Source: Candidatus Sericytochromatia bacterium | GTDB taxonomy: Bacteria > Cyanobacteriota > Sericytochromatia > S15B-MN24 > VGJW01 | Length of the DNA stretch: 64,000 nucleotides | NCBI GenBank assembly: GCA_035285865.1 | Contig: JAYKHS010000028.1 | Location: forward strand, 151,938 to 215,937 | Direction of reading: 5' to 3' | Shown here: positions 19,804 through 51,266 of the stretch, in pieces | How positions within the stretch are numbered: position 1 is the stretch's first letter | Layout of the letters: each line of letters starts with the position of its first letter | The notes under the pieces: generated by a model | Told to the model about the DNA's origin: nothing | Seen by the model: the letters and a program-made list of their open reading frames with translations, nothing else | Databases searched by the model: none | Position numbers and translations under genes: made by a program

Positions 19804-20280
19804 GTGCAACGTCATGGTGGCCATCTGGTCCTTACCGAGGAAGGGCTGCGAACGCTCAATGCGTCCCTCGGCGACCTCGTGGCGGAGTCCGGGGCGCGGG
19901 CCGTGCTGCTCGTGGGCGGTGCAGGCCAGTTGATCTCGGCGCAAGGCGAGACCCAGCACCTCGACACCATGTCCCTCGCGGCGCTCGCGTCGGGTTCCTT
20001 CGGGTCGAACAAGGCCATCGCCGGCCTAGTCGGCGAGTCGGGCTTCCGCCGGATGTTCCAGCAGGGTCGGCAGTCCAGCCTCTACATGGCTCTGGTCGGC
20101 GGAGCCGACATGCTGGCGGTGGTCTTCCCCAACGACATCACGATGGGCAAGATCAAGTTCCAGGTCGAGCAGGCGATGCCTGCCATCGAGGAGGCGCTCG
20201 GCGCCATGTACAAGGCTTCCCCCACCAACCCCTTCAGGTCTGCTCCCCAGGCAGCCCCGAAGATCCAGGATCTCTTCTAG
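19804..20280 (+). CDS. mglB: Roadblock/LC7 protein MglB (GAP of MglA)
   Basis: [25 protein letters not shown] and IQDLF C-terminus; directly upstream of mglA. Confidence 0.85.
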
Positions 20281-20291
20281 GAGCGACGCAC

Positions 20292-20870
20292 GTGGCCCTC
20301 ATCAACTATGCGAGCCGTGAGATCAACTGCAAGCTGGTCTACTACGGGACCGGCCTCGGCGGGAAGACGACGAACCTCGAGTACATCTTCAAGCAGCTCG
20401 CGCCTGGCATCCGCGGCGAGATGATCAGCTTGGCCACGGAGACCGAGCGGACCCTGTTCTTCGACTTCCTGCCGCTGGACCTGGGATCCGTGCAGGGTTT
20501 CAAGACCAAGTTCAGCCTCTACACGGTGCCCGGGCAGGTCGAGTACAACGCGTCACGCAAGCTGATCCTGAATGGGGTGGATGGCATCGTGTTCGTCGCC
20601 GACTCTCAGGTGGAGAAGATGGGCGAGAACATCGAATCGCTGCGCAACATGGAGGAGAATCTCGCGGAGTACGGGCTCACGCTCGATAGCGTGCCCTTCG
20701 TCTTGCAGTACAACAAGCGCGACATGCCCAATGTCAGCAGCTTCGAGGAGTTGGAAGCCGCGCTGAACCAGCGGGGCGTGCCTTCCTTCGAGGCGGTCGC
20801 GGTCGAGGGTTCGGGCGTCTTCGCGACGCTCAAGGCCATTTCCAAGTCCGTCCTGAACAGGCTCTCCTGA
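20292..20870 (+). CDS. mglA: Ras-like GTPase MglA
   Basis: [46 protein letters not shown] and QYNKRD. Confidence 0.95.
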
Positions 20871-22286: not shown

Positions 22287-22361
22287 CGGTCATCACCGAC
22301 AGCCCGTGATGGGCCTAACCAGCATGGCATGTTGCTTCATGCTCCATGTTGTGGAGGCGTC

Positions 22362-27657: not shown

Positions 27658-29061
27658 GTGCGCGTCCGCAGCCCCAGCGTCTGGGCCTTGCCTGGCCTGT
27701 TGCTGCTTGCGGGTTGTGATGTCCTGCTGCTTTCGCCGACGATGCCGGGTCTGGTGCCGGGCATCGGGCAACCCCTTCGTGGCCAGGTGCTTGATGCGCT
27801 GACAGGCTTGCCGTTGGGCGGTGCGTCGGTGGTCGGGGACGTGGGGTGGACCACCACGGGGTCGGACGGTCGCTTCGAGCTGTATGGGGCTGTCTCGCGC
27901 CAGGTCATCTCGCTGGCACGTGCCGGCTACACATCCGAGACCCTGGCGACGGGGCCGGTCGAGGACGGGCGGGCCTACTACCTGTCGCCGCTCTTTCCGG
28001 CGACGGGAAACCTCAAGGCCCGGTTCGCCACGGTCCTGGGATCAGCCGTCGTTTCGGGCAACGTTCCGGCTGCCTCGGGCGAAGTGGTCTTCGCCGGCCT
28101 GAAGTCCGGACGCATCAACCAGGGGCGTTATGCCATCGTCATGGATCCCGCCAGCGGCTTGCCGGGGTCCATCTTCTCGGGCGTGCTGGCCGGCGGTGAG
28201 GTGATCGACGGGCCCATCGACGCGCCTGACGCCCCTTTCCAGTTTCGCAGCTTCGGCATGCAGACCATCGATGTCCCGTTCACGGCGGCGGCCAACCCCG
28301 CGACCACGTCGGTCTCGACACCGCTGGTGCTCGAACAGCAGCGGATGACCGGTCTCGAGATCAGCTATGCCAACACCACGTGGGCGCGCGAGGTTCGCAG
28401 TTCCGTGACCTTGGACTTCGGTTTGATGGGGTCCGTGCCGGTGGCTCGCGGGTCCGGAACCGCCCAGTCTCTGCGCGTGCCATCCATACAGGGAACGAAG
28501 ACGGTGCTCGAGGGTCTGGCCGTCGATGCCCAGGGCGAGCGCGTCAGCAAGGTGACGATCACGACCAACATGCTTGCCAAGGTTCCCTTCGACTTGCTGA
28601 CCCCCCCGGACGGTGTCGAGCCGGCTTCGGGCTCCGAGGGCGTCGGGGGCTGGCCCGGCTTCGCGTGGCGGGCCGTGCCCGGGGCGGATGCATACCTGGT
28701 GCAGGTCTATGAGCCGGGCATTGCACAGCCCAAGTGGCGTGGACGCACCCGGGGCACCTCGATCTCGTTTGGGCGTTTCGGGGATGGCGACGCGAACGGC
28801 GCCGCCCTGCTGCCCGGTACGGACTACACTTGGGAGGTGCATGCCCTGAGCTCCCAGGTCGAGGTTGCAGGAGCCGGCATGGGCGCGAGGTCACCTGACC
28901 CGCTTGATCCAGCGGTGGACCCGAGTCCGTGGTTGCTCACACCGGGTCAGGGCATGCCCGGCGTGTGGCCCCGTATGCTCGGTGAGGCTGCTCCCCCGAT
29001 GCGCCCCTTCCGCAGCAAGAGCCGGGAGTCCGTACGGCGCGGCATGGGATTCCGCCGATGA
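27658..29061 (+). CDS. Lipoprotein with carboxypeptidase-regulatory-like and Fn3-like domains
   Basis: Lipobox LAGC; GQVLDALTGLPL-GA-V...T-SDG-F; W-AVPGADAY-V and L-PGTDYTWEV. Confidence 0.65.
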   Translation: MRVRSPSVWALPGLLLLAGCDVLLLSPTMPGLVPGIGQPLRGQVLDALTGLPLGGASVVGDVGWTTTGSDGRFELYGAVSRQVISLARAGYTSETLATGPVEDGRAYYLSPLFPATGNLKARFATVLGSAVVSGNVPAASGEVVFAGLKSGRINQGRYAIVMDPASGLPGSIFSGVLAGGEVIDGPIDAPDAPFQFRSFGMQTIDVPFTAAANPATTSVSTPLVLEQQRMTGLEISYANTTWAREVRSSVTLDFGLMGSVPVARGSGTAQSLRVPSIQGTKTVLEGLAVDAQGERVSKVTITTNMLAKVPFDLLTPPDGVEPASGSEGVGGWPGFAWRAVPGADAYLVQVYEPGIAQPKWRGRTRGTSISFGRFGDGDANGAALLPGTDYTWEVHALSSQVEVAGAGMGARSPDPLDPAVDPSPWLLTPGQGMPGVWPRMLGEAAPPMRPFRSKSRESVRRGMGFRR

Positions 29062-30341
29062 GCAGATGCATCCTCGGTGGGTGGGCATTGCCCCTGCTCG
29101 TGGCCTGTCAGACCTTGCCGCCTTGGCCTGCGACCGTGTCGGCGGCGCGAGCCGACCGGTTCCTCGTCTCATTCGCGCAACCCGTGGCCGTGGAGCGTGC
29201 CTCGGGATGGGGAGACGGCTATCGTGCCCGGGCGCTGTCGGACCATGTGCTGCTGATCCGGTCGGATGCTCCGATGCCGCTGTCCGAGGCCGTGGCCCGT
29301 TGGCAGGGCTTGCCCGGGGTGCGCCACATCGAGGAGGATCGCCTCGTGCGACCGGCGTGGTGGGGAGCATGGCGCGGGCGACTCAAGCCGGTTCTTCCGG
29401 CTTTCGGCCTTGGCATCCAGGCGGTCGATCCCCTGACGCCGGAAGGCGCGGGCGGAGCGGGGTTGCCTGGTCAATGGGCGGTGGGTGCGCTGGGCTTGGA
29501 GGCGGTATGGGCTCGAAGTCAGGGCGAGGGCGTCACGGTTGCGGTCCTGGATACGGGTGTGGATGCCACTCATCCTGATCTGGCCCCAAACCTCGAGGCC
29601 GGGCTTAATCTGGTCGAAGGTGGCAATCTGCCGCCCACCGATGATTTCGGCCACGGTACCCACGTTGCGGGCATCGTCGGGGCAGCCCTGAACAACCGTG
29701 GTGTCGTGGGCACGGCGCCACGTTGCCGGATCCTGCCGGTGCGCGTGCTCGGGGTAGAGGGTGGCACCACCGCTGCCCTGATCGAAGGTCTCGATGCCGC
29801 GCGGAGGCGGGGGGCACAGGTCGCCAACCTCAGCCTTGGATCGGCCCAGGTCAGCCGGATCGAGGCAGACGAAATGGCCCGCGCCGTCGGTCAGGGGATG
29901 ATCGTGGTTGCAGCGGCCGGTAATGAGGCTCTGTCAGGTAATCCGATCGAGTACCCGGCGGCTCTTACGGGCGTCATCTCGGTCGCGGCCCTGGGCCTCG
30001 CCGGAAAGGATGCTTCGGGTGCTCCGGTCATGGTGCGTGCCGCCTTCTCCAATCACAACCCCTTCAATGCGGTGGCAGCCCCCGGCGTCGACATCCTCTC
30101 GACCGTGCCGCTTTCGCTTTTCCCAGACGCGACTTCGGTCGGAGCAGGCTATGCTTACGCAAGTGGAACGTCCATGGCGAGTCCGCTGGTGGCCGGTGTC
30201 GCAGCCCTGATGCTTGCCCGCAAGGTTCCGGCGGCGCAGGTTCGTGCCCGGTTGCAGGAGACGGCGCGGGATCTGGGCGCCCCCGGATCGGACGACCTGC
30301 ACGGCGCCGGCCTCGTTCAACCGGCAAGCGCCGTGCCTTGA
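29058..30341 (+). CDS. S8 subtilisin-like serine protease (lipoprotein)
   Basis: Lipobox LVAC; catalytic VLDTG, HGTHVAG, AAGN and GTSMASP. Confidence 0.9.
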   Translation: MSRCILGGWALPLLVACQTLPPWPATVSAARADRFLVSFAQPVAVERASGWGDGYRARALSDHVLLIRSDAPMPLSEAVARWQGLPGVRHIEEDRLVRPAWWGAWRGRLKPVLPAFGLGIQAVDPLTPEGAGGAGLPGQWAVGALGLEAVWARSQGEGVTVAVLDTGVDATHPDLAPNLEAGLNLVEGGNLPPTDDFGHGTHVAGIVGAALNNRGVVGTAPRCRILPVRVLGVEGGTTAALIEGLDAARRRGAQVANLSLGSAQVSRIEADEMARAVGQGMIVVAAAGNEALSGNPIEYPAALTGVISVAALGLAGKDASGAPVMVRAAFSNHNPFNAVAAPGVDILSTVPLSLFPDATSVGAGYAYASGTSMASPLVAGVAALMLARKVPAAQVRARLQETARDLGAPGSDDLHGAGLVQPASAVP

Positions 30342-32975: not shown

Positions 32976-33121
32976 CGGTTGCGTTTGGCTGAAGCGACGG
33001 CCTTCTTCATATAGTTCCCGGTTTCCAGGCAACGTCATTTCTCAGGCCTCAGGCCTTCGCAATAGCTCGTTCCTCCCTTCCCAACTTGCTCGGGCCCAGT
33101 GCCCATTCAGGAGTCTACCGG

Positions 33122-34408
33122 ATGAAGAAGTTCGCTCTGCTCGCCTCGCTCGCGGTCGCCGCCGGCACCGTCGGTTGCGGTACGTCCCCCGTTGCGCAGT
33201 CCCAGGCCCTTGGTGGTCAGGTCAACCTGTCGGCCGCTGCCGTACCCGGTCAGGTGCTCGTCAAGCTCAAGCCCGGCGCCAACGCGATGGGTGTGATGGC
33301 TGCCCGCTCCGCGATGGGTCTCCGCAGCGTCGCCGCCCAGAGCGCCACCCTCAACCGCATGGGCTGGACGATGATGTCGTTCGATGCCAGCCGGACTAAC
33401 CTCGCCAGCGTCATCGGTGCCCTCTCGACGGATGCTTCCGTGGCCTATGCCGAGCCCAACTATGTGGCCACCGTGTCCGATTTCCGGCCGATCCGCCCGG
33501 GTGTCGGCGCCACCGGCAAGGCTGGTTACAACGATCCGATGGCCGGCGACCAGTACACCCTGGACAAGGTCGAGACCGCAGCCGCGCACGCCGTGACCGA
33601 GGGTTCCGAGAAGACCCTTCTCGCCATCGTGGACACCGGCGTCGACTACAACCACCCGGATTTCGCCACTCGTGACGGTCGCGGCAGCCGCGTCGTCAAG
33701 GGCAAGGACTTCGCCAACATGGACAATGATCCGATGGACATGCACGGCCACGGCACCCACTGTGCGGGTATTGCTGCCGCCACCTCGAACAACGGCGAGG
33801 GCATCGTCGGCCAGGCTCCTGGCGTCCGCATCCTGGCGGTCAAGGTTCTCGGCGACAACGGTTCGGGCAGCTACGGTGGTGTCGCCAACGGCATCATCTA
33901 TGCCGCCGACCAGGGTTCCTCGGTCATCAGCATGAGCCTCGGTGGCCCGAGCAGCTCGAAGGTTGTCGAGGACGCCTGCAAATACGCCATCTCGAAGGGC
34001 TCGCTCGTGATTGCCGCGATGGGCAATGATGGCCGCAAGGTCAAGAGCTTCCCGGCCGCCATTCCCGGCGTGATGGCCGTCGGTTCCACCAACGTGTCCG
34101 AGAAGCGCAGCAGCTACTCGAACTTCGGCGAGTGGATCTCGCTCGGCGCTCCTGGTGAGGCCATCCTGTCGACGCTGCCGACCAAGGGCAGCCAGATGGG
34201 CAAGGTCTACGGCAAGGCCAGCGGCACCTCGATGGCGACCCCTTGCGCAGCCGGCGTGGCAGCCCTGGTTCGTGACCTGCACCCCGAGTGGGATGCCGCG
34301 ATGGTTCGGGCTCACCTCGAGCGGACCAGCGACGACCTCGGCGACAAGGGCTTCGACATCCAGTTCGGCCACGGTCGCATCAACGCTCGTCGCGCCGTCA
34401 CCGAGTAG
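33122..34408 (+). CDS. S8 subtilisin/thermitase-like protease (lipoprotein)
   Basis: AGGAG RBS, lipobox TVGC, prodomain (YAEPNY), IVDTG, HGTHCAG and GTSMATP. Confidence 0.95.
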   Translation: MKKFALLASLAVAAGTVGCGTSPVAQSQALGGQVNLSAAAVPGQVLVKLKPGANAMGVMAARSAMGLRSVAAQSATLNRMGWTMMSFDASRTNLASVIGALSTDASVAYAEPNYVATVSDFRPIRPGVGATGKAGYNDPMAGDQYTLDKVETAAAHAVTEGSEKTLLAIVDTGVDYNHPDFATRDGRGSRVVKGKDFANMDNDPMDMHGHGTHCAGIAAATSNNGEGIVGQAPGVRILAVKVLGDNGSGSYGGVANGIIYAADQGSSVISMSLGGPSSSKVVEDACKYAISKGSLVIAAMGNDGRKVKSFPAAIPGVMAVGSTNVSEKRSSYSNFGEWISLGAPGEAILSTLPTKGSQMGKVYGKASGTSMATPCAAGVAALVRDLHPEWDAAMVRAHLERTSDDLGDKGFDIQFGHGRINARRAVTE

Positions 34409-39173: not shown

Positions 39174-39190
39174 CCCACATGCCGAGCTTG

Positions 39191-39232
39191 GCGCCCCTTC
39201 CCGAATCCCGGGAGGGGGCGTCGTTGCTTGTT
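39191..39232 (+). terminator. Intrinsic terminator after rpoB
   Basis: GCGCCCCTTCCCG/CGGGAGGGGGCGT stem followed by CGTTGCTTGTT. Confidence 0.65.
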
Positions 39233-39295
39233 GGGTGGTTAAGCCGTCTGCTGGCGAGGGTACGCATGCAGTATCCGGACCGTCAGGGAGGTCCC

Positions 39296-40429
39296 ATGCG
39301 GAATATTGTGCGTCGACTCGGTATGGGGGCGCTCAGCCTCGCTCTGGGTGCGTGCGCCTCGCCCGCCCTGACGCGTGCGCAGGCGCCAGCGGGCGGCGAT
39401 GTCTCACAGCTTGGCCAACTGCCGGGGTTCGATGTCACGCCCCAGGCAGGACTGGTCGGCAGGGTCGTCTGGCCTGATTCCGCACGTCGGTTGATGGCTA
39501 CCCAGGATGAGGTGGCCAGACGGGCCCGTGTCGGCCTCTTGCAGCCTTCTGGATCCGGTCAGTTCCGAACGGTCTACACCGCTCTGACAGACGAGTTTGG
39601 CAACTTCCAATTTCCTGCCGAGGTGACTGAAGGGGCCAATGGCATTCCGATCGATCCGTCGAAGGTTCTCATCCTGCAAGCAGAGAACGGCCTTAGCAAC
39701 AATGCGGCTGGTTCCAGTTCGGCTCGGTTGCGAACTTTCCTGACGCGTGTGGGGCAGGGTTCGACCGGATACCGCAGCACGTATGTCGATGATCAGAACT
39801 CCGGCATTGTCAACATCGATTTGAACACGACGGCGATGGCGGTCATCAAGTCGCTTCGGGACCAGTCACGCGTTCCTGCCGGCGACATCGTCGCTTTCAT
39901 CCAGTCGGTCACGCCCAAGACAAGCACGGCGAACCCTGCGGTGGTTGGCGCCAAGGAGTCGGTGCTGATCGTCCCCAACTCCGAGTTCCAGACGGTCTCG
40001 ACCTTGGTGGCCAATGTCCTTACGGGCAATCGTGATCCTCTGGCTGCCATCGAACTCAGGGATGCCGAGTCCAACCCACGGCGCTACCTCATCAAGTCCG
40101 AGTCCCAACCCGTCATCCAGGATGTGCGCTACATCGGGACCGGCGCCCCGCGCACCGTGTTCCAACCACTGGATCCCGTTCGGGTGTCCGGGGTCAATCT
40201 TCCGTACTACAGCCAAGGGGTGCTCGAGTTCCAAGGGAAGTCGGGGATCCTGACGGCACCTATCACGGGCGCGGATCTCGAGCAGAATACGTATCTGGAC
40301 ACGCAGGTGCCGCTGGACGTGGTTACGGGCATTGCCCAGTTGCGCTATGTGGCGATCAACGGAACCTTGGCCTATGCCACGATGTCGGTCGTGACGCCCC
40401 TCGGGGGATCGCTTACCCCCAGTCGTTGA
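39296..40429 (+). CDS. Lipoprotein, cluster family A (N-domain paralogous to 48510-50969) with IPT/TIG-like domain
   Basis: GGGAGG RBS, lipobox LGAC; P-I-DV...VRVSG-NL...QVP IPT-like segment. Confidence 0.75.
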   Translation: MRNIVRRLGMGALSLALGACASPALTRAQAPAGGDVSQLGQLPGFDVTPQAGLVGRVVWPDSARRLMATQDEVARRARVGLLQPSGSGQFRTVYTALTDEFGNFQFPAEVTEGANGIPIDPSKVLILQAENGLSNNAAGSSSARLRTFLTRVGQGSTGYRSTYVDDQNSGIVNIDLNTTAMAVIKSLRDQSRVPAGDIVAFIQSVTPKTSTANPAVVGAKESVLIVPNSEFQTVSTLVANVLTGNRDPLAAIELRDAESNPRRYLIKSESQPVIQDVRYIGTGAPRTVFQPLDPVRVSGVNLPYYSQGVLEFQGKSGILTAPITGADLEQNTYLDTQVPLDVVTGIAQLRYVAINGTLAYATMSVVTPLGGSLTPSR

Positions 40430-40559
40430 CCGACTTCAGCCAGGCGGCTTGGCTGGCGCGCCCGGTGCGTGACGTCGAGTGCTGGCTTGCGCGGCGCGAC
40501 GGGCCAGAACGGCCTGCTCTGCCGCCGGCCAGACGCCGCGGGCCGCAGGCCCAACCTCG

Positions 40560-41738
40560 TCAGTTGATGAAGGCGCTGGCCGTTGCCTGATTCAGGTCGG
40601 TGATGCCGAAGTAGACCATGTCGAGAAGACCTGACTCGGGGGGCTGCGCAGGAGCCGTGTAGACACCCTGCTGGTTGATGATGCCCAACTTGCGTCGGTT
40701 CTCGGGGTTGGTGCTGAAGAATTCCGGCTCGGCCTGCGGGCTTGCATTCACCTTGTAGGTGATCTTGGGATTCTGGGGCACGAACTCCGCGTTGTCGGTG
40801 TCGAAGCACTTGCCGACGAAGGTCTGGCTTCCACCGGCGTTGACATCCGCCGACGTCGGCGAGATCGAGAACCTGGAAATGCGCTTGAAGTCAGGCTGCA
40901 GGCTGGCGGTGGCACCGGCGTTCACGAGCTGGATCTTGCCCTTGGTCATGTCACTCTGGACTTGGAACTGCAGCGTCCCTCGGCCCGCATCCGTAAGGCC
41001 ATTCATGACATTCTTCGCCACGACGTTGCCTACCAGAATCTTGAAGGCGTCCGGCGCGTTGGGTTCGAGGATGTCTTCAACGTGCAGCGTGACGAAGAAC
41101 CCCGTGGGACCGGCATCAACAGAAGCCGTGGCGTCAGAACCCACTTGCTCGTAGACTCCCAGCAGGCGCGGTTCGCCGCTGCGGATGAAAGCCAGACGAA
41201 CTTTGTTTCCTGCACCGGGAACGAGGTTGATGTTGGCCGTCGCTTCGGCCTTGAGGTTTCCCATGCCATCTCGATCGTCATAGGCCTTGGCCGTGACCTT
41301 GGCGAAGCCGGTTGGCAAATCCTTGAAGGATGCGTTCGCGGGTGAGGAGGTGTCCGAGTAGAGGTTTATCGATGAGAGCGGGTAATCCACCCCAAACTGA
41401 CGATAGGTGCCGTAGTTAGCCTCGAAGGTCTGGTTGCCGACCGTAACGAAGACTTTGATGGACCCACTCTGGCGAACGGCCAAGGGGAGAGATTGAGCGG
41501 TCCTTGACGTTGGTCTCTGCACGAAGCGGATGGTCAGCTGGGCCGAACGTTCGAGGGAGCCCGGGGCCTGTTCGGTTGCTGGTTCCGTTTCCGGAACCAG
41601 CGCCATGCGCCCGAATGCTCCGGCATCCTGCGTTTCCGGGGCCTGAGCGGGTGGTGTAGCCAGCGTCGTGGCCGCACAGCCCGCAAGCAATGTCGACCAG
41701 AACGGCAATCCGATGCGCATCTGCTTGCCCTGCTTCAC
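40560..41738 (-). CDS. Lipoprotein, cluster family B (RxxQxLP domain + Ig-like domains)
   Basis: Lipobox LAGC; LTIRF..RTAQSLP; ISPTSADV-AG-SQTF and GIINQQGVYTAP (Big-type Ig). Confidence 0.75.
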   Translation of the reverse strand: MKQGKQMRIGLPFWSTLLAGCAATTLATPPAQAPETQDAGAFGRMALVPETEPATEQAPGSLERSAQLTIRFVQRPTSRTAQSLPLAVRQSGSIKVFVTVGNQTFEANYGTYRQFGVDYPLSSINLYSDTSSPANASFKDLPTGFAKVTAKAYDDRDGMGNLKAEATANINLVPGAGNKVRLAFIRSGEPRLLGVYEQVGSDATASVDAGPTGFFVTLHVEDILEPNAPDAFKILVGNVVAKNVMNGLTDAGRGTLQFQVQSDMTKGKIQLVNAGATASLQPDFKRISRFSISPTSADVNAGGSQTFVGKCFDTDNAEFVPQNPKITYKVNASPQAEPEFFSTNPENRRKLGIINQQGVYTAPAQPPESGLLDMVYFGITDLNQATASAFIN

Positions 41739-42361
41739 AGTTCAATCTCCACGGTCAAGCCTGCGGGCTCGGGTGTGGGTTCTGGTGTCGGTGCGAGTGT
41801 CGGTGCCGCAGTGGGCTGAGGGGTAGGATTACTTCCTGGATCCGGAGTAGACGAACCCCCACCACCGGATCCGGGCGTGCCGAACGGAATGGGTGTCGGC
41901 GTCGCGGTGGATCCACCGCCATCCGAGATGGGCGTGTTGAACGGCACGGGCGTTGCTGTTGCGGTGGAGCCGCCGCCACCCGAGATGGGCGTGTTGAACG
42001 GCACGGGCGTGGCTGTTGCGGTGGAGCCGCCGCCACCCGAGATGGGCGTGTTGAAAGGCACGGGCGTGGCTGTTGCGTTGGAGCCGCCGCCGCCCGATAT
42101 GGGCGTGCCGAAGGGCACTGGCGTAGGTGTCGCTGTGGTGCCGCCACCGGCACCATTGTCCCCGACCTTGCCGCCGACGCTGCCATTAGGATTGAAGGTT
42201 GCAGCCGAGCCAGTAGGGGTGGTTGAGGGCTTGGCCGTTGCCGAGGAACGCCTGAAGATTGGCTGCTGAGTAACTGTATCCTCGGCGCACGCCACGATCA
42301 TAAAGGTGGCCGCGACACAGGCGAGCGGTAGAATCCTGCGCCTGGACAGGGTCATCGTCAT
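41735..42361 (-). CDS. Pro/Thr/Gly-rich tandem-repeat lipoprotein (family C)
   Basis: Lipobox IVAC; repeat region; ends GLTVEIEL; GTGA overlap with the next gene. Confidence 0.75.
   Translation of the reverse strand: MTMTLSRRRILPLACVAATFMIVACAEDTVTQQPIFRRSSATAKPSTTPTGSAATFNPNGSVGGKVGDNGAGGGTTATPTPVPFGTPISGGGGSNATATPVPFNTPISGGGGSTATATPVPFNTPISGGGGSTATATPVPFNTPISDGGGSTATPTPIPFGTPGSGGGGSSTPDPGSNPTPQPTAAPTLAPTPEPTPEPAGLTVEIEL
41860..42150 (-). repeat. 57-bp (19-aa) tandem repeat, about 5 copies: TATATPVPFNTPISGGGGS
   Basis: ACGGCACGGGCGT at 41941 recurs at 41998 and, slightly varied, at 42055; diverged copies flank these. Confidence 0.9.
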
Positions 42362-42432
42362 CTTCTTCCCCCGAGTCGAGGTCCCATCGGTACCGTACCC
42401 CGACTCTCCGGCCTTTATGCCTTTCCTGTGGC

Positions 42433-44424
42433 TCAGGGCGCGATGACTGGCGAAACGGTGGCGGTCAGTGCGTGATGGAACGCGATCAGGGCATCCCACT
42501 CGCCGATTGCCGGGCCCGGTCCGTCCGGATCGGTCTTCATGTCCGGAGGTTGCCGCATTTCGGGTGCGATGTTGACTGCCTTGGTGGCGAATCGCTCGTA
42601 GAAATGCACCGCGGAGAACAGGTCCGGTTGGCTGCCATTGTGGAAGTAGGGAGCCGTCTGGGCCACATTGCGCAGGCCGGGAGTCTTGAAGGCCCCCTGA
42701 TCCGTTGCAAGGCCCGTTACGCCACGCCGGCCCGGATCCCCCGTGCCGAACTCGTCGAAGCCGATATTGTGGAACTTGTTGTCGGTGAACAAGGGGCCGT
42801 TGTGGCACGCTGCGCAGTTGGCCTTCCCCGTGAAGATGGCGAGGCCCCTGATCTGGTCTGCCGTCATCGCATTGTCGTCACCCAGCACCCAGCGATCGAA
42901 GGGTGCAGCCGTCGGATTCGGCGTGTTGTCCGGATTGCGACCTGCGGGTGAGACGTGGGCCCGGACATAGGCGGCAACGGCCTTTCGGGCCAGCAGGTCG
43001 TCGGGAGCGGACCCATAGACGGCTTGGAAGTCCTGGACATAGGCGTTGCTGACACGGAGTGTGGCGGTCACGGCATCGCCCGTGGTCGCAAACTCGCGAG
43101 GCCTCGTGAAGACCAGCAGATGCTGGGCCTCGAGTGAGTCGGCACTGCCGTCCCAGTTGAACAGGGTGTTGAACGCCGTATTCCAGATGGTGGGAACGTG
43201 ACGGGGCAGCTCCTTGCCGTCCTTGTCGATGCCCAGCTTGAGGCCGTCTCCCCCTCCCAGGGCATCCTGATGGCAGCTGGCGCAAGACATCTTGCCGTTC
43301 GATGAAAGGGTTGGATCGCCGAACAGACGCTCACCAAGCGCGAACTCCGCGCTCGGTACGGGAGTGATGGCCGGCATCGGCCCCATGTTCCACTGGGCGA
43401 GGTCCGCCCGTCCGAACGCGTGGACCTCGAAAGAGAGGCTGGCTTGCAGCTGGTCATTGCCAAGCCTGACCGCGATGGTTCCGGTGCTTTCGGGGAGCAC
43501 CAGACAACCGCCGCCCTGAACGAACAGTTCCTTCAATCTCAGGTTGGCCCCACAGTCCGCGCCGTTGCAGCGCCTCGACCAGTGAGGCGCCAGCGCCAGG
43601 GGGTCAAGTGGCTTGCCAGTGCTGTCGTAAGCCTTGCCCCGCAGCTCGATGATGCCGCCCGGAGCGTGGGCTGCCGTCTTCAGTACGTCGATGGAGATGG
43701 ATGCGATGCGCGTGATGACGGGTCGATAGGTGTTGGCCTGCCCGGCGACATCCACAGACAGGGTGCCGCTCGTGAAGTCTTCCGGGGGGGTCACGACCAA
43801 GGCGGTATCGCTGCGTGTCGCTATGGCTGAAGGTGGCAGGGGTTGTCCGTTCAGGCGCACTTCGACAGGCAGTCTGCTTGTCCAGCCGAAGCCCTGGCCG
43901 CTGATGCTCAGCTGCTGGCCAGGCAGCGGTTGCTTGGGGTCGACATTGAAAATCGTGACCGGAATGATGTTCTGCAGGGTCAGGACGGCCTGGGTGAGGG
44001 TGTTGGGTTGCACGACCACTTCGGTCGAACCCGTCGCGAGCAGGCCGCCCGAGGCGGACAGTGCCTCGGCCGAGATGGAGACCGTTCCGGGCTCAAGCGG
44101 CTGCAGGCTGCCCGTCGCCAGAGCTTCCGAGCCCTCTCGGACGAGCGTAAGCACCACAGGTGGCCCGCCGGAGCCGTCCCGGGCCTTGAGTGTCAGGGAG
44201 GCAATGTCCGCAGGAATGACCTGAGTCTGGCGTTGCGGCCAGCGCACTCCGACCCGAACCCCGCCTGTCCCCGCCGGAAGGGCCGTACCCGCAGGGTCGG
44301 AAACACGTACGGCCTCCAGGGTCGGGTTGCCGGATGCGGCGGGCAAGCGCGACACCTGACAACCCGTCAGGAGGCTCGAGCCCACCCATGCGACAAGGGT
44401 CAGGACCTGAAGGGCGTTTCTCAT
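42433..44424 (-). CDS. Lipoprotein: family B domain + IPT/TIG + di-haem cytochrome c peroxidase/MauG-family domain
   Basis: Lipobox LTGC; VRWPQRQTQVIP; LGERLFGDP-LS, CASCH, FNWDG, CAACH and FKTPGLRNVA-TAPYFHNG. Confidence 0.85.
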   Translation of the reverse strand: MRNALQVLTLVAWVGSSLLTGCQVSRLPAASGNPTLEAVRVSDPAGTALPAGTGGVRVGVRWPQRQTQVIPADIASLTLKARDGSGGPPVVLTLVREGSEALATGSLQPLEPGTVSISAEALSASGGLLATGSTEVVVQPNTLTQAVLTLQNIIPVTIFNVDPKQPLPGQQLSISGQGFGWTSRLPVEVRLNGQPLPPSAIATRSDTALVVTPPEDFTSGTLSVDVAGQANTYRPVITRIASISIDVLKTAAHAPGGIIELRGKAYDSTGKPLDPLALAPHWSRRCNGADCGANLRLKELFVQGGGCLVLPESTGTIAVRLGNDQLQASLSFEVHAFGRADLAQWNMGPMPAITPVPSAEFALGERLFGDPTLSSNGKMSCASCHQDALGGGDGLKLGIDKDGKELPRHVPTIWNTAFNTLFNWDGSADSLEAQHLLVFTRPREFATTGDAVTATLRVSNAYVQDFQAVYGSAPDDLLARKAVAAYVRAHVSPAGRNPDNTPNPTAAPFDRWVLGDDNAMTADQIRGLAIFTGKANCAACHNGPLFTDNKFHNIGFDEFGTGDPGRRGVTGLATDQGAFKTPGLRNVAQTAPYFHNGSQPDLFSAVHFYERFATKAVNIAPEMRQPPDMKTDPDGPGPAIGEWDALIAFHHALTATVSPVIAP

Positions 44425-44429
44425 CGCGC

Positions 44430-45050
44430 TTACTCCACCACCACGTCCATGGCGGCCTCATCGAGGATGGTCACGGGGATGGTCACGCGCATCCGGCCAT
44501 CGAGGCTCTCGACGATGATGCGGGCCGTGCCCGTCTCATCATCTGCCGCAAAGAGTCCGGGCTCGATCTCGTCCAACTCCACATCCTCGTCCACTTCGAC
44601 CGTGAAGCGCGCCCGGCTATCGATGGCATTGTCGTTCAAGCGGACCTCTGGCACCAATCGGACCATGTGCGGACGAAGCCCCGTGCTTCCCGAACCTGGA
44701 GCAACGCCAAGCTCGATGGCCGTGACACCGTCGTGGTAGGGGGCATCCTCGCCCGCGCCGAGGCGTACCTTGATGCCGGTGGAGAAGATGCCGTCGGGAT
44801 AGCGCTCCGTGTAGGGAGGGGTGGCCGTCGGGATCGGCAGTGCCGAGGACGTCGCGGCGGGCGTTGCGGTCGGTGCGCCAGACGGCTGGCCGAGGGGAGT
44901 CGGCGACGCGGCAGTGCTGCCTGGAGAGGGCAAGACAGTCGACGACGGGACTGGCGATAGCAGGGCTGACGGGACCAGACCTTGGCAGGCGGGCGTCATC
45001 ATGAGCGTCGCGGAGGCCACTCCGACGGCAAGGATGCGCCGTACTTGCAT
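44430..45050 (-). CDS. Pro/Ser/Thr-rich putative lipoprotein with C-terminal Ig-like domain (family C)
   Basis: GGAGG RBS, signal ending TPAC; ends AAMDVVVE. Confidence 0.65.
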   Translation of the reverse strand: MQVRRILAVGVASATLMMTPACQGLVPSALLSPVPSSTVLPSPGSTAASPTPLGQPSGAPTATPAATSSALPIPTATPPYTERYPDGIFSTGIKVRLGAGEDAPYHDGVTAIELGVAPGSGSTGLRPHMVRLVPEVRLNDNAIDSRARFTVEVDEDVELDEIEPGLFAADDETGTARIIVESLDGRMRVTIPVTILDEAAMDVVVE

Positions 45051-45192
45051 CAACCCACCTCCCGAATCAGGACGTGAGGGTTTCGGGTCGGCGGGCGACC
45101 CGGACAGCCCTCGTCTTGCGTGTTCGTCATCGTCACGCACCGCAATAACGACGAGTCAGGAGCCTCGGACGGCATGCGCTCCAGCGACGGCC

Positions 45193-46332
45193 TCATCGTG
45201 CCACCTCGATGTCCACCGTCGCCGTCAAGGGAGGAACGCCCACGACGAAGCCACCACGGGCCACCTTGAGGCATCCCTTGTAGGCGTCCACCACGGATAC
45301 CTGTTGCGTCCCCGCTCCCAAGGCGGTCAAACTGAAGAACTCGTCATCGCCACAATCCAGCTGCACGGGATCGGGATCGTAGCTTGGCAAGGCACCGGTC
45401 AGGCCGTTCGGCGGACGACCCACGGGCTGTCCGAAGGCGTCCAGGAAGGAGACGCTGAAGGTCGCGGTATCTTCGATGCCCATGTAGATGGACTGGGGAG
45501 AGACCGAGACAGAGGCAATGATCTCGATGGTTTCGGGAAGGGTCGCGGTCGAACCCTCGATGTTCAGGACCAGGGAGCCCCCCGTTGCATCCAAGGGTAC
45601 CCGGAACGAGAGCGTATTGTCCGAGGCCCTGCCAAGGGGCGGTTCGCCCGGACGGCTCGCCAGTGCCTCCCCTTCGATGACCTGATCGCCCAGCGTCAGA
45701 CTGTAGCTGGCGCCTCGGCTCGCCCCGAAGCCCGCGCCATCCAGTGTGACGACCTCTCCCCGAAACGCGGTCAGGGGATTGGCCCTCTTGAGCGTCAGCG
45801 GTTGATCGGGCGGGGCCAGGACCACGTGCGCCCGATGTCGGCCATTGGGCTGAAGCCGGACGCGGGTGCTGCCCGACACGACCAGTTCCTTGAGCACATT
45901 GCGGCCTTCGACCACCAAGGTCCAGTCACCGGGTTTGAGTGCGTAGAAGGTCGCTTGGCCGACGGAGCCCACGAGGCGCGGAATGGTGCGACGTTCGACG
46001 GGAACACCGGCTTCGTCTGGCACGACCCGGCATGTCAGTTCTCGAACACCCTCCGGGATGAGCTGGGCCGTTCTGGTCGCAGGCCACCGCACCGACAGCG
46101 TCAGGCTGGCGTTTGTGGTGGCCGGACGAGCTGCGTCAGCCGTTTCCGTGCCGCCGAGTGCGGTCTGGCCGTAGGCCTCGGGAGCAAGGGGGCTGTCGCC
46201 GGGCGTTTCACCTCCCGTGGGCGCGGTGCAGGCCGCCACGAACACGGCAAGGACCAGAGACAAAGCCGAGGCCGTAATCCTAGCCCGGTCGGGGCCCGCC
46301 GAAACGGGGTTGACCGGTGGATAGGGCGCCAA
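45193..46332 (-). CDS. Lipoprotein, family B + IPT/TIG + Ig-like domain
   Basis: Lipobox VAAC; VRWPATRTAQLIP; GEVVTLDGAGFG...LSFRVPLDATGG; ends TATVDIEVAR. Confidence 0.75.
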   Translation of the reverse strand: MAPYPPVNPVSAGPDRARITASALSLVLAVFVAACTAPTGGETPGDSPLAPEAYGQTALGGTETADAARPATTNASLTLSVRWPATRTAQLIPEGVRELTCRVVPDEAGVPVERRTIPRLVGSVGQATFYALKPGDWTLVVEGRNVLKELVVSGSTRVRLQPNGRHRAHVVLAPPDQPLTLKRANPLTAFRGEVVTLDGAGFGASRGASYSLTLGDQVIEGEALASRPGEPPLGRASDNTLSFRVPLDATGGSLVLNIEGSTATLPETIEIIASVSVSPQSIYMGIEDTATFSVSFLDAFGQPVGRPPNGLTGALPSYDPDPVQLDCGDDEFFSLTALGAGTQQVSVVDAYKGCLKVARGGFVVGVPPLTATVDIEVAR

Positions 46333-46346
46333 GGATGAAACCCTCC

Positions 46347-47693
46347 TCAGGGGATGATGGATACCGTGGCCGAAGCCTTGATATTCGAGAAGCCGAACTC
46401 GACGACCTCGCTGCTGCCCGTGGAAACCCCGATGAATTTGCTGGTGTAGGGGGTACCTGGTGCAACCGTGGCACCCGGTGATGGCACGACCGTGGGGGTC
46501 TGGACCTCGAAAGGCGAGATCAGGTAACCGCCCGAGATCGGGTCAATGTAGCTCTTGCCGTAGACCGGCGCCCCCGAGTCGATTTGCTCCCAGCCAAGAT
46601 CGTTGCTCTTGAACTGGAAGACCTTCTCGTAGGCCTGGGCGGCGTACCTTTCCACATTGATGGAGTCCGAGCCGACGCCCATGCTGAAGACGGGAGCGCC
46701 TGGCTTGCCGATGTAGGGTGCAAGATCGATCTCGTCGCTGCCGCTGAACGCCTTGCCGACGAACACGACATCGAAGCTCGAACTGGCCGCGAGAGAGGTG
46801 GTCGCCTGGGGGGTGGCGGACTTCGAGAGCGAGACCGAGGTTGGCGTGATCGTCACTCGGTCGACGCGTGTCGCCGTGTTGGGGCTGCACTTGGTGACAC
46901 CGTTGATGGCCACGCAGAGGGGTTCGTTTCTTCCGAGGTCACCGGGGACCTTGACCGACAACAAGCCTTTGCCGTCCCCAAGCGCCAAGAAGCTACGATT
47001 GGCCGCGCCAATCGGGATACCCGCGTTGTCATTGCCGAAGAAGACCGACATCCCGTTCGCGGCGTCGTCACCCACCCCGTCCAGGCGCGCATTGATGGTG
47101 TCGCCAAGGGCCACCAGTTCAGCGCTCAGCCTGCCGACCTCGTGCACGACGATCGGGATGAGATTCAGCGAGACCTTGGTGTTGACGTTCGGTGCCACCG
47201 TGAACGTGGTGGAGGCGGAGGCCACGACGATGGAGTCCGAGGATACGGCCATGTTGACGGTGTCGTAGCGCGAGTAGGCCACGGCCGACATCGTGGCGGC
47301 ACCGATGGCCACTTGGTCGAAGCTGATCGACGCAGTCGATTCTCCTGCTTTGCGCACGGCGACCTTGGTCAGCGAGACGCTGGGAGAGCCTGACTCGAGC
47401 GTGAAGGCCAGAGCGTTGGTGATGTCCGGAATGACTTGAGTGGTCCGCTCAGGCCAACGAATCTCGAAGGCGATTCGCCCCGAGCGTACCGCTCCGTCCG
47501 AAGGCTGTCCCGTCAGCGTCGGCAACGCACCGCCGCTCGCGCCTTCGGTGGCGGACGTCAGTCGCTGGGCGCTTTCCGGCGACGCGACGCAGGCCCCTAC
47601 GAAAGCCGTGACGGCCAGAGACAAAGCACCGGACAAAACGTGGGCGGGGCGCAAGCGCTTGGGGGTGCGCGACATCAGGTGGTTGTCTCCCAT
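46347..47693 (-). CDS. Lipoprotein, family B + Ig-like domains
   Basis: Lipobox VGAC; IRWPERTTQVIP; ends ASATVSIIP. An alternative ATG lies 18 nt downstream. Confidence 0.75.
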   Translation of the reverse strand: MGDNHLMSRTPKRLRPAHVLSGALSLAVTAFVGACVASPESAQRLTSATEGASGGALPTLTGQPSDGAVRSGRIAFEIRWPERTTQVIPDITNALAFTLESGSPSVSLTKVAVRKAGESTASISFDQVAIGAATMSAVAYSRYDTVNMAVSSDSIVVASASTTFTVAPNVNTKVSLNLIPIVVHEVGRLSAELVALGDTINARLDGVGDDAANGMSVFFGNDNAGIPIGAANRSFLALGDGKGLLSVKVPGDLGRNEPLCVAINGVTKCSPNTATRVDRVTITPTSVSLSKSATPQATTSLAASSSFDVVFVGKAFSGSDEIDLAPYIGKPGAPVFSMGVGSDSINVERYAAQAYEKVFQFKSNDLGWEQIDSGAPVYGKSYIDPISGGYLISPFEVQTPTVVPSPGATVAPGTPYTSKFIGVSTGSSEVVEFGFSNIKASATVSIIP

Positions 47694-48458
47694 CTACCGG
47701 ACCTCGACCGTCACCCGGCCTTCGCCGGAGACTTCGACCGCGAAGCTACGCGTGATGAAACTCTGGACGCCGCCCACCGTGTCGGAAGGCGTCAGCGACT
47801 GCAGCACGATGCTGGTCTTGCCGGGCTTCTTGCCGACCAGGCGCCAGTACTTGCTGGTCCCGCCAAGCGGCAGGACCGCGGCCAACTCGGCTACCGTGAC
47901 GATGCTCGTGTCGTTCGAGACAATCGTCAGATCCTTGTCCAGACGGCCAGGATCGGTGTAGGTGACAAAGGCTTCGATATCCAGTTCCCAACCTTGCTGG
48001 ATGGGCTCGTTGCCTGCCCCCGGATCGACCGATAGAGTGGCGGGTTCCGGCAAGGGCTCGGATTTGCCCTTCGCGGAAACACGAATCGCCGTGGCGAGCA
48101 CCTGACCCACCGGTATGGTCGTCGGTGCAGCGGTCGGGGTCGGTGCAAAGGTCGGCCTGGGGGAAGGCGTCGGCGTCGGAGCCAAGGTCGGAAGCAGACC
48201 GCCGGGGGTGGGGGTCCGGGTGGTCCCGGTGGTGCTGCCAGGAGCGGGTGTCGGCGTTGCCCCGCCGCCTACGTTGCCCCCGGGACCACCCGGAGCCGGG
48301 GTCGGTGTAGGCGTTGCCCTGACGGTACCGGTTCTCGGTGCTGTAGTCGGTTCGTCCGTCGTGGTGGCCACGACGGATGTATCGGCACAGGCCGCCAGCA
48401 GCACCAAGCCCACGGCGGCGTGTCGCATGGTCCGTCGGTATGCGGGATGTCGATGCAT
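47694..48458 (-). CDS. Pro/Thr-rich lipoprotein with C-terminal Ig-like domain (family C)
   Basis: Lipobox LAAC; PTPTP linker; S-DTSIVTV...GKKPGKT-I (Big_2-like); ends GRVTVEVR. Confidence 0.75.
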   Translation of the reverse strand: MHRHPAYRRTMRHAAVGLVLLAACADTSVVATTTDEPTTAPRTGTVRATPTPTPAPGGPGGNVGGGATPTPAPGSTTGTTRTPTPGGLLPTLAPTPTPSPRPTFAPTPTAAPTTIPVGQVLATAIRVSAKGKSEPLPEPATLSVDPGAGNEPIQQGWELDIEAFVTYTDPGRLDKDLTIVSNDTSIVTVAELAAVLPLGGTSKYWRLVGKKPGKTSIVLQSLTPSDTVGGVQSFITRSFAVEVSGEGRVTVEVR

Positions 48459-48509
48459 GGAGTGAGGGCAAGTCCTGTGCTAGGGGGGGCGCGAGGCCCC
48501 CCCGGTGGG

Positions 48510-50969
48510 TCAGTTCATCGAAGTGTATTGGACGGAGTTGGTGTTGCCACACCAGCCACCGATCTTATACACGTACCGGCCGCAGACGACCGTGGTGCCG
48601 CCGCCGCCGAAGTTGACGTTGGCATTGCCGTAATAGGGCCAGCAACCTCCGGCATTCTGCGGGGCGTTGCCATCAGCCGTGAGGGTCGAACGACGGACCT
48701 CGGTGCCACCGCACCAGGGACCGAGCATGTAGAGGTACTGTCCTGTGGCGAAGGCGCAAGCGCCGTAGTTGCCGCAGAATGCACCACCGCCGGTTTGGTT
48801 CCAGCCGCCATTGGGCGTACCGTCTGCGTTCAGGTTCAGGTACGACGTGTAGTTGTAGGTCAACCACCAGAGGCGGCCGCCCACATATAGCATCGGGGTT
48901 TCGGCGTTGCCCGTGTAGGGTCCGGTCTGCCAGCCGCCCGAGTACGTGTCGTTGGCCGGGTTGTAGGTCTTGTAGAAGAACGGCGTGCCGCAGTAGCCGG
49001 CCATGCCATACACGCCGCGGCCGCTGCCGACGGAGCTCAGTTCTGACGCGCACCAGTTGATGTCGTCCCGGCTGTTGCCGTTCCACTGGCCCCAGCCGGA
49101 GCCCTGGTTGCCCTCGATGTCGAAGGAAAGGTAGCCAGCAGCACTGCTGCCTTCGTCCTGGAAGATGTAAAACCGCTTGCCGACCCAGTTGTCGAAGGTG
49201 CCGGCCATGTCCTGCTGCCGCAGCGCCCAGCTGTAGTTGCCGGCGAACTGCAAGCCTGATGCAGGGCCGCCGTCGTTGTTCAGGTCGAAGTAGTAAACCG
49301 TGTTCTGTTCGGCCGGGATGATGTAGAACCGCTTGCCCGACCAGAAGCCGGCGTTCATGTTGCCGCCGCCGTGGCCGCCGGACACGTAGGCCCAGTTCGA
49401 GTTGTTCAGGTTGCCGTCGATGGTGGCCACCGTGGAGTCGGCCTGGGCACCCGACGCGATCTGGACGGATACGGCCGTGGCGTTGCTGGCACCGATTCCG
49501 GGTGGCACCACGACACGGATGGTGGTGTTGGTCCAGTACTGGATCATGGCTGCCTTGTTGCCGATCTTGACCGTTCCCAAGGCCGTACCGAACTTGTCCC
49601 CCTTGATCTGGACGTAGCCGTGCGAGCCTACCGACCGCGGGTAGATCTCGGAGATGGTGACCGAGTTGTCGATCATCGTGAGCGGGAAGGGGTCGGAAAG
49701 GCCATTGGGGTTGTATAGGTACACCGGTCCCGAAGTTGCGTCGGCCGGAACCTTGAGATACAAGGCGCGGGATCCGCTGATGGTCGTGTCGTAGGTCGAG
49801 ACCGACGCCGTGGCCAACTTGCCGCTGCTGAGCGGGAAGGCCTTGCCCGTCGTCTTGTCGAGCATCGTGAAGTAGACTTCGTTCTTCGAGATGTTGGCAC
49901 CGGTAAAGAATCCATAGCCTTCGACCTTGCAGTACTCGTCGAACTTGACGGGCAGGCCGGTGCCCAATGGGTACCGCACGATGTTGGTGATGTTGACGTT
50001 GATGCCGGGCGGAACCTGGAAGTCGGTCTCTGCTGCCTTGCCCATCGACTCGACGCGCAGCTTGCCCGAGGCGGCGGTGGACGGCACGAGCACCGTCAGC
50101 TCATTGGACTTGATGCTGACGGGCGTCTGCGGCGGTGCCGTGGAGCCGCCGAAGCGAACCACGGTTCCGCCCGGGTAGGACGCGAAGCCCGTGCCCTTGA
50201 TGGTGACGAGCGTGCCCGGGCCTCCCGAGGTGGGAGAGATGCCCGAGATCGTGACGGCGCCGGAGGTCGGGAGGTTGCCAATGGGTTCCATGCCAGCCAG
50301 CAAGTAGTTCTTGACGGCGGTCGCGATGTCCTGGATCTCGGCGGCGGCGATGGCGCCGACGCTGGCGGCATTCAGCTGCACGCTCGTCGACGTCACGGCA
50401 ACCTTGCCGATGACATCCGCGACGTTGATGCGGCCTTGGCCGACCAGAATGGCCAGGGCGGTGGTGAGTTGGTTGATGACGATGCCGCCACCCACGGTAC
50501 CGTTGCTGATGGACTTCCAACCGCCCGCGGTGGCATCCCACTGAACGATGGTGCGCATGCGCAGGATGGGCGAGCCGGGTGCCGAACTGACCGCCTTGGC
50601 GGCCTCAAGGTAGTAGTAGCGGCCGTCCGGAGGCGCCGAGCCGCCCTGGAAGGTCAGGGTGAAGCCGCCCGAGTTGTCCGACAGGCCCGAGCCGACGGGT
50701 TGATTGGTGGACAGATCGATCAACGAGATGGTGGCTTGGCTCGCGATCGACGCAAGCTGGGCATCCGTCAGTTGCTGGTTCTGGCTGGTGAGCTGGCCCG
50801 GGTCACGGACCGACCCGTACAAGACGTATCGCGCCGGATCCCAAGCGTTCGTGGCGGCAGGCTGGGTCGGATTGTCCGGCGCAACCCCGCCGACGCGCCC
50901 CGGCAGGGACGAACAGCCCACGGCCAACACGATGGCCGACGAAAGACCCCACCGCTTCCACGACTTCAT
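48510..50969 (-). CDS. Large lipoprotein: family A N-domain, ~3 IPT/TIG domains, C-terminal Cys/Trp-rich Kelch-like beta-propeller
   Basis: AAGG RBS, lipobox AVGC; ISPTSGGPGT-VTI-GTGF (IPT); six G-x-(F/Y)-Y blades. This is the 3' part of the listed 2121-aa ORF. Confidence 0.8.
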   Translation of the reverse strand: MKSWKRWGLSSAIVLAVGCSSLPGRVGGVAPDNPTQPAATNAWDPARYVLYGSVRDPGQLTSQNQQLTDAQLASIASQATISLIDLSTNQPVGSGLSDNSGGFTLTFQGGSAPPDGRYYYLEAAKAVSSAPGSPILRMRTIVQWDATAGGWKSISNGTVGGGIVINQLTTALAILVGQGRINVADVIGKVAVTSTSVQLNAASVGAIAAAEIQDIATAVKNYLLAGMEPIGNLPTSGAVTISGISPTSGGPGTLVTIKGTGFASYPGGTVVRFGGSTAPPQTPVSIKSNELTVLVPSTAASGKLRVESMGKAAETDFQVPPGINVNITNIVRYPLGTGLPVKFDEYCKVEGYGFFTGANISKNEVYFTMLDKTTGKAFPLSSGKLATASVSTYDTTISGSRALYLKVPADATSGPVYLYNPNGLSDPFPLTMIDNSVTISEIYPRSVGSHGYVQIKGDKFGTALGTVKIGNKAAMIQYWTNTTIRVVVPPGIGASNATAVSVQIASGAQADSTVATIDGNLNNSNWAYVSGGHGGGNMNAGFWSGKRFYIIPAEQNTVYYFDLNNDGGPASGLQFAGNYSWALRQQDMAGTFDNWVGKRFYIFQDEGSSAAGYLSFDIEGNQGSGWGQWNGNSRDDINWCASELSSVGSGRGVYGMAGYCGTPFFYKTYNPANDTYSGGWQTGPYTGNAETPMLYVGGRLWWLTYNYTSYLNLNADGTPNGGWNQTGGGAFCGNYGACAFATGQYLYMLGPWCGGTEVRRSTLTADGNAPQNAGGCWPYYGNANVNFGGGGTTVVCGRYVYKIGGWCGNTNSVQYTSMN

Positions 50970-51095
50970 GGGGATTCCCTTTCCTTGAGGTTGGATCCTG
51001 AACCGGACAGGTTGCCTACCATGGGGTACGGTACCCGCCTGGTTCGGTCCTGTAACGGTTTCGGAGAGCTTGTCGTCGGCCGCGCTCGCCCGGTC

Positions 51096-51124
51096 TTGAC
51101 CCCCTGTCCGGGGCGGCCTACAAT
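51096..51124 (+). promoter_or_regulatory. sigma70-type promoter of rpoC
   Basis: TTGACC-17 bp-TACAAT. Confidence 0.7.
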
Positions 51125-51266
51125 GATTGGCCCTGGGTTTGTGCCCGGTGGTTTTGGGGTTGGGGTCGCTTGCGCGCCCCGATTCCCGATTTTTGAGAGA
51201 CGATTCGGGTGGGCGGGTGCCCCTTGTCTGGGGATCCTGCGCCCGTGAAGCCAGTAAGGAGCGCGG

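Follow-up and report, generated by a model that had tools for sequence, protein, structure and literature searches.

Lipoprotein genes between rpoB and rpoC1 of a Sericytochromatia bacterium as a probable modular strand-exchange display system

The present study concerns a block of nine lipoprotein genes from Candidatus Sericytochromatia bacterium (assembly GCA_035285865.1, contig JAYKHS010000028.1, positions 151,938 to 215,937; this whole stretch of 64,000 nucleotides is called the window) and a candidate system of β-strand exchange between their products. The block spans 12 kb between rpoB and rpoC1 (window 39174-51266), a split rpoC1/rpoC2, which hints at kinship with cyanobacteria, lying beside rpoB. 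Eight of the nine lipoprotein genes (50969 to 40560) read on the minus strand and the ninth (39296-40429) on the plus strand; lipoprotein-type signals with a lipobox were read in all eight minus-strand genes and in 39296(+). The rpoB junction and the gene order are conserved in the two same-genus genomes compared. The only names obtained from Pfam and NCBIfam for the nine proteins were IPT/TIG domains and a CCP_MauG peroxidase, with no pilin match in Pfam and no chaperone or usher match in either database. Two unnamed domains are central here: the N-terminal A domain, with the pattern G-x-h-x-h-x-h-x-WP..[RYF]xxQ-x-IP (h, hydrophobic), and the B domain, which opens 48510 and 39296 and whose first strand h-x-G-x-V is usually followed by R-x-x-Q-A. 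The features are the following:

48510..50969, minus strand: B-class tip P0001, lipoprotein with a B domain (first strand LYGSV, 50808-50822) and IPT/TIG repeats, no donor tail; it probably carries a β-propeller
47694..48428, minus strand: anchor 1 (P0002), lipoprotein with a Pro/Thr-rich linker, a Big_2-like immunoglobulin (Ig) domain and an extra C-terminal strand, the putative donor
47697..47720, minus strand: putative donor strand GRVTVEVR of anchor 1 (orthologue ends GRVTVEVR, GQVIVVVD)
46347..47675, minus strand: acceptor/tip P0003, lipoprotein with an A domain (47148-47498), IPT-like and Ig domains
47436..47480, minus strand: strand 1, WP and motif region of P0003, strand 1 being GRIAFEIR (47457-47480)
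47436-47447, minus strand: putative cut motif RTTQ/VIP of P0003, predicted to be cut after Q
45193..46332, minus strand: acceptor/tip P0004, lipoprotein with an A domain (45805-46125), IPT and Ig domains
46087-46110, minus strand: strand 1 of P0004, ASLTLSVR, with the putative cut motif RTAQ/LIP at 46063-46074
44430..45050, minus strand: anchor 2 (P0005), lipoprotein-type signal, Pro/Thr linker and Ig domain
44433-44456, minus strand: putative donor strand AAMDVVVE of anchor 2 (orthologue ends SAMDVVVE)
42433..44424, minus strand: acceptor/tip P0006, lipoprotein with an A domain (43966-44277), IPT and Ig domains and peroxidase cargo
44242-44265, minus strand: strand 1 of P0006, GGVRVGVR, with the putative cut motif RQTQ/VIP at 44221-44232
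41735..42361, minus strand: anchor 3 (P0007), lipoprotein with a linker of low complexity throughout
41738-41764, minus strand: putative donor strand AGLTVEIEL of anchor 3, exceeding the usual register by one residue
40560..41720, minus strand: acceptor/tip P0008, lipoprotein with a divergent A domain (41178-41561) lacking WP, IPT-like and Ig domains
41493-41504, minus strand: putative cut motif RTAQ/SLP of P0008, whose corresponding strand is AQLTIRFVQ
39296..40429, plus strand: candidate B-class donor-bearing subunit P0009, lipoprotein with a B domain (LVGRV, 39452-39466) and an IPT-like domain
40400-40426, plus strand: tail LGGSLTPSR of P0009, a mimic of B strand 1

The genes of the A class are arranged in modules separated by 71-142 nucleotides, within which each of the three anchors stands 5-18 nucleotides ahead of an A gene: P0003 begins 18 nucleotides past anchor 1, P0006—the cargo of which is a di-haem cytochrome c peroxidase (CCP_MauG)—5 nucleotides past anchor 2, and P0008 14 nucleotides past anchor 3. 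No anchor gene immediately precedes P0004, which probably shares anchor 1 with P0003. Five further anchor/A-gene pairs occur in the same genome, on other contigs or elsewhere on the same contig.

The initial annotation regarded seven C-termini of the block as candidate donor strands, comparing them with the strand that precedes RWP. All seven are found at the ends of their open reading frames; the likeness, however, holds for three of them only, those of 47694, 44430 and 41735, which are extra strands on the linker-rich lipoproteins and share the register of the strand before RWP exactly, with G at position -8 and hydrophobic residues at -6, -4 and -2. The remaining four are otherwise explained. 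Those of 46347, 45193 and 40560 are each the final strand of the protein's own Ig domain and align with the Ig strand preceding the extra strand in the anchors; in the structural model of P0004 (45193) this strand belongs to the third domain. The terminus of 42433, brought forward there as an example of a donor, has no conserved alternating strand, the tails of ten compared A-domain peroxidase proteins being broken by proline (e.g. ALTATPSF, TLTSPIATP, SLAGATPSVTP). The terminal strand is conserved in orthologues of the three anchors; those of anchor 3 have diverged in their linkers and kept their ends (PAGLTVEIEL, PAVLPIVIEF). The longer tail of 41735 and the absence of WP from 40560 are both kept in orthologues, which is suggestive of a matched pair. 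The general idea of strand exchange with lipid-anchored tethers is supported by the gene order, the register match and the conservation, although not in its extension to all seven termini, and the list of donors lacked one of the second class, 39296-40429.

Modelled, the A domain is a single seven-strand β-sandwich opening the acceptors, as in P0004, where one such domain is followed by IPT and Big_2-like domains. In sequence and model alike, its strand 1 is flanked by the lipid anchor on one side and, on the other, by an exposed loop that varies in length and bears the conserved motif [RYF]-x-x-Q/x-[IL]-P. Relatives were sampled as 29 loci plus 40 regions chosen by hand from the best 150 of 424 matches, with other families favoured, yielding 98 distinct A genes, for 84 of which a codon-bias rule called a gene upstream on the same strand. 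The domain, present in up to 67 copies per genome, is N-terminal in 91 of the 98, and a crude rule recognizes a lipoprotein signal in 91/98 A genes and in 24/35 complete anchors. Glutamine occupies the putative P1 position in 67 of 78 cases, a count that is partly circular, the motif being part of the profile; the Armatimonadota-type set has arginine there. Anchors are without the A domain, and 20 of their 39 aligned ends match Pfam Big_2. At the level of sequence, the donor tail is found on anchors and on linkers (A domain and donor in one protein), and on none of the tips. The cargo of tips elsewhere includes propellers (Kelch, NHL, PQQ-like, FG-GAP, PD40), vWA and phospholipase D (Pfam matches in 22 of 40 long homologues).

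In relatives, 39 of the 84 genes called upstream of an A gene end in the strict form of the tail, G-x-h-x-h-x-h-x-stop, and 57 in a looser form; in the background of the genome under study the two forms are seen in 8 and 24, respectively, of 2195 likely-coding open reading frames, three of the eight lying upstream of A genes. The likely-coding filter lost two known donors; unfiltered, the strict tail ends 12 of 9104 open reading frames of at least 150 amino acids, five of the 12 being upstream of A genes. Both patterns were composed after examples had been seen, so a profile of strand 1 only offers a less circular test: on 65 unfiltered non-A upstream tails it scored +2.6 at the stop codon and from -4.4 to -11.4 at offsets 1-6. 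The tails fit strand 1 of the A domain in a single register only. Concerning A proteins with at least 600 nucleotides of downstream sequence, an A gene comes next after a strict tail in 10/12 cases (both misses counted as A neighbours under the first profile), after an Ig tail in 3/17 and after another tail in 6/41. The locus L042 (G004:C49:1-20000) has a single anchor followed by eight consecutive A genes, first three for linkers, then three for tips, another for a linker and a final one; the linkers bear Kelch-like propellers. An operon of the genome under study (G000:C17:18156-24582, part of L002) codes for an A-like protein with a donor, an A tip containing Kelch-like repeats and a lipoprotein, and ends with a protein that has an aromatic C-terminal residue and resembles an outer-membrane barrel.

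The pattern of tail and A domain recurs, as far as the sequence indicates, in one Armatimonadaceae genome with 12 A genes, in which the motif is mostly R-L-I-P and six of the 12 were seen by eye to follow a gene whose tail has G at -8 and is hydrophobic at -4 and -2, such as GDAEVILD, GTLPIIVN and GLSLDFK. The B domain, in turn, was found in 22 of 31 genomes, with as many as 77 matches in the genome of a single relative. A C-terminal h-x-G-x-h ends 14 of 17 short B proteins, which often lie upstream of a second B gene, none of 11 long ones and 131 of 3399 in the background; based on these statistics, 39296 with its LGGSLTPSR would act as a donor of the B class and 48510 as a tip of that class.

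The above results are most consistent with a modular display system based on strand exchange and resembling type V pili, to which, taken as a whole, we assign a probability of roughly two in three. Each subunit would be exported and lipidated as a lipoprotein, as its signal suggests; an envelope protease would cut the loop of the A domain after the conserved Q; the 8-residue tail of the protein encoded upstream would take the strand-1 slot in the same register; and the acceptor, freed of its own lipid, would hang on the long Pro/Thr linker of the anchor. Linkers would give rise in relatives to short chains in gene order. The window, holding anchors and tips only, would provide anchor-tip pairs in three modules, i.e. 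47694 with 46347 and probably also 45193, 44430 with the peroxidase 42433, and 41735 with 40560, accompanied by the parallel B class (39296 as donor, 48510 as tip) with a strand pattern of its own. Since none of the four A proteins in the window has a donor tail of its own, polymerization into a fibre is not expected. Binding of the tail to the strand-1 slot is the step held with good confidence, and a proteolytic trigger, argued by analogy, is somewhat favoured. As to the location, the cell surface and the periplasm are about evenly balanced: a di-haem peroxidase requires haem attachment in the periplasm, so that a periplasmic location is conceivable. Minimal lipoproteins of ~145 amino acids, composed of an A domain and a tail (L056:2428-2787, L039:1474-1836, L073:1555-1917), are candidates for a self-polymerizing subunit or an adaptor; in an AlphaFold model of such a protein with strand 1 present the tail is unfolded (pLDDT, a per-residue confidence score, of 54), which is weak evidence, the tail being present in only 3 of 55 alignment rows.

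The cutting and refilling of the A proteins is proposed by analogy with type V pili: in these, according to PMC13655056, cleavage occurs in the loop after the anchor strand, whose place is then taken by a C-terminal donor strand. The same source describes further features recalling the cluster, namely lipoprotein precursors (stalk FimA/Mfa1, anchor FimB/Mfa2, accessory Mfa3-5/FimC-E), an anchor strand near the N-terminus with a conserved cut-like site in the loop behind it, donor strands at C-termini, anchors left uncut, linkers combining the two features and tips lacking a donor; it also states that these pili are unique to Bacteroidia. The topology of the A domain is compatible with the transthyretin-like N-terminal domain of a type V pilin. 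That pilin, however, has two such domains in tandem, whereas the acceptor of the cluster is one small domain, and the donor comprises ~21 residues in two strands in type V pili but a single strand of eight in the cluster. Moreover, no pilin fold is present in the anchors, which have a Pro/Thr linker and only in part Big_2, Gln prevails at the putative P1 position (Arg in Armatimonadota) in place of Arg/Lys, gingipain has no link to the system, a self-repeating major pilin is absent from the window, the tips bear enzymes and propellers, and there are two donor/acceptor classes. The cluster and the Armatimonadaceae genome also lie outside Bacteroidia, and since neither the two-domain pilin fold nor this taxonomic range applies, the system is set apart from type V pili. 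Chaperone-usher pili, in which, according to PMC13721041, a strand of one subunit completes the β-sandwich of the next, share strand donation with the proposed model; their donor is, however, N-terminal rather than C-terminal, a chaperone and an usher are required—no gene for either was seen in the cluster—and their subunits are not lipoproteins. Surface lipoproteins with Big_2/IPT domains and CCP_MauG peroxidases contain the same spacer and cargo domains and account for four of the seven termini and for the cargo, but not for the A domain or the extra strand.

Against specificity of pairing, the likeness within cognate pairs does not significantly exceed that within shuffled pairs (p = 0.11; 39 of 50 pairs kept after removal of near-duplicates). 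Four of the Armatimonadaceae A genes lack the upstream tail, with no upstream open reading frame called for two more. Cleavage is unobserved and no protease is linked to the A loci, the 13 S8 genes of the genome included, which would suit binding of the tail without proteolysis, either by displacement of strand 1 with both lipids in the membrane or by β-augmentation at a sheet edge, giving lipoprotein heterodimers. Conservation and adjacency agree with this alternative equally well; it is nevertheless rather unlikely, because the tail copies strand 1 exactly, which speaks for its replacement rather than for addition at an edge, and because the long linker is limited to anchors and the exposed conserved motif to acceptors, which fits the release of the acceptor lipid.

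The C-terminal strand might instead be an export or sorting signal for a translocon or chaperone, linking no subunits. Known C-terminal β-signals have an alternating pattern at a fixed distance to the stop codon, as these tails do, and the barrel-like last protein of the operon mentioned above would also suit such a role. We consider it improbable: the tips would need export too, yet lack the strand, the tail predicts a downstream A gene (10/12), and two classes of tails fit two different first strands. Comparably improbable is the wide version of the initial annotation, by which the last Ig strands of 46347, 45193 and 40560 would flip out, as β14 of Mfa1, to build a longer fibre. Loose register is seen in 23 of 75 A-protein tails (12 of these strict), tandem A genes occur at 46347-45193, L016, L017 and L063, and type V stalk pilins self-complement as monomers, as stated in PMC13655056. 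The Ig tails, however, align with the pre-donor strand of the anchors and are modelled as part of the Ig fold, and an A gene follows them about as frequently as it follows unrelated tails. A relic origin of the tails, left without present function by the splitting of anchor-A fusion genes, would also produce register and adjacency, but is very improbable given that the tails retain their exact length and pattern in different families and in a second phylum even though the linkers have diverged, and that the A domain is nearly always N-terminal, no search aimed at fused forms having been made.

A literature search with limited access to subscription papers turned up no account of such a system beyond Bacteroidia. 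The display system proposed here would resemble the pili of Bacteroides in its logic, though assembled from different parts. A tentative extension, rather doubtful at present, is that of a second, independently built family of protease-triggered strand exchange, present in every genome searched of the class and in Armatimonadota: a plug (the 8-residue C-terminal strand) and a socket (the domain of ~100 residues), with orthogonal A and B sockets from which cells could assemble short chains that follow the gene order and display, on flexible tethers, exchangeable tips (peroxidase, propellers, vWA, phospholipase D). If true, lipoprotein strand exchange would be a general route to envelope structures, found in other phyla too, where the module is far smaller and the scaffolds are of another kind; the unnamed A domain would gain a function; and an 8-residue tag locking into a 100-residue domain could serve as a tool for protein coupling.

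Some additional observations were made. The anchors L028, L030, L032, L033 and L079 have no Ig domain and share the conserved end DPR(V/L)(I/L)xGSPxxGxVxVIIE, longer than the tail of other anchors. NCBIfam NF058595 (invert_tail) was rejected as a match, the best scores being 26 bits for proteins and 28.7 for genomes against the curated cut-off of 37 bits; its matches fall mostly over signal peptides and are seen in 10 of 14 control genomes. Two of the S8 proteases are encoded in the window (29058-30341 and 33086-34408), both as lipoproteins, and the former has GLGIQ-AVDP, similar to the putative cut motif, before its catalytic domain. Upstream of an S8 protease, the lipoprotein 27658-29061 begins, past its lipobox region, with P-L-R-G-Q-V, which is similar to B strand 1, although the B profile gave no match. 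A sigma-70-like site is located at 51096-51124, ahead of rpoC1; such sites occur at chance level overall. The window also contains what we take to be a Ser/Thr kinase with TPR repeats (22329-24332) and, at ~19900-20870, presumably a gene for an MglA-like small GTPase with a DUF4388-like neighbour.

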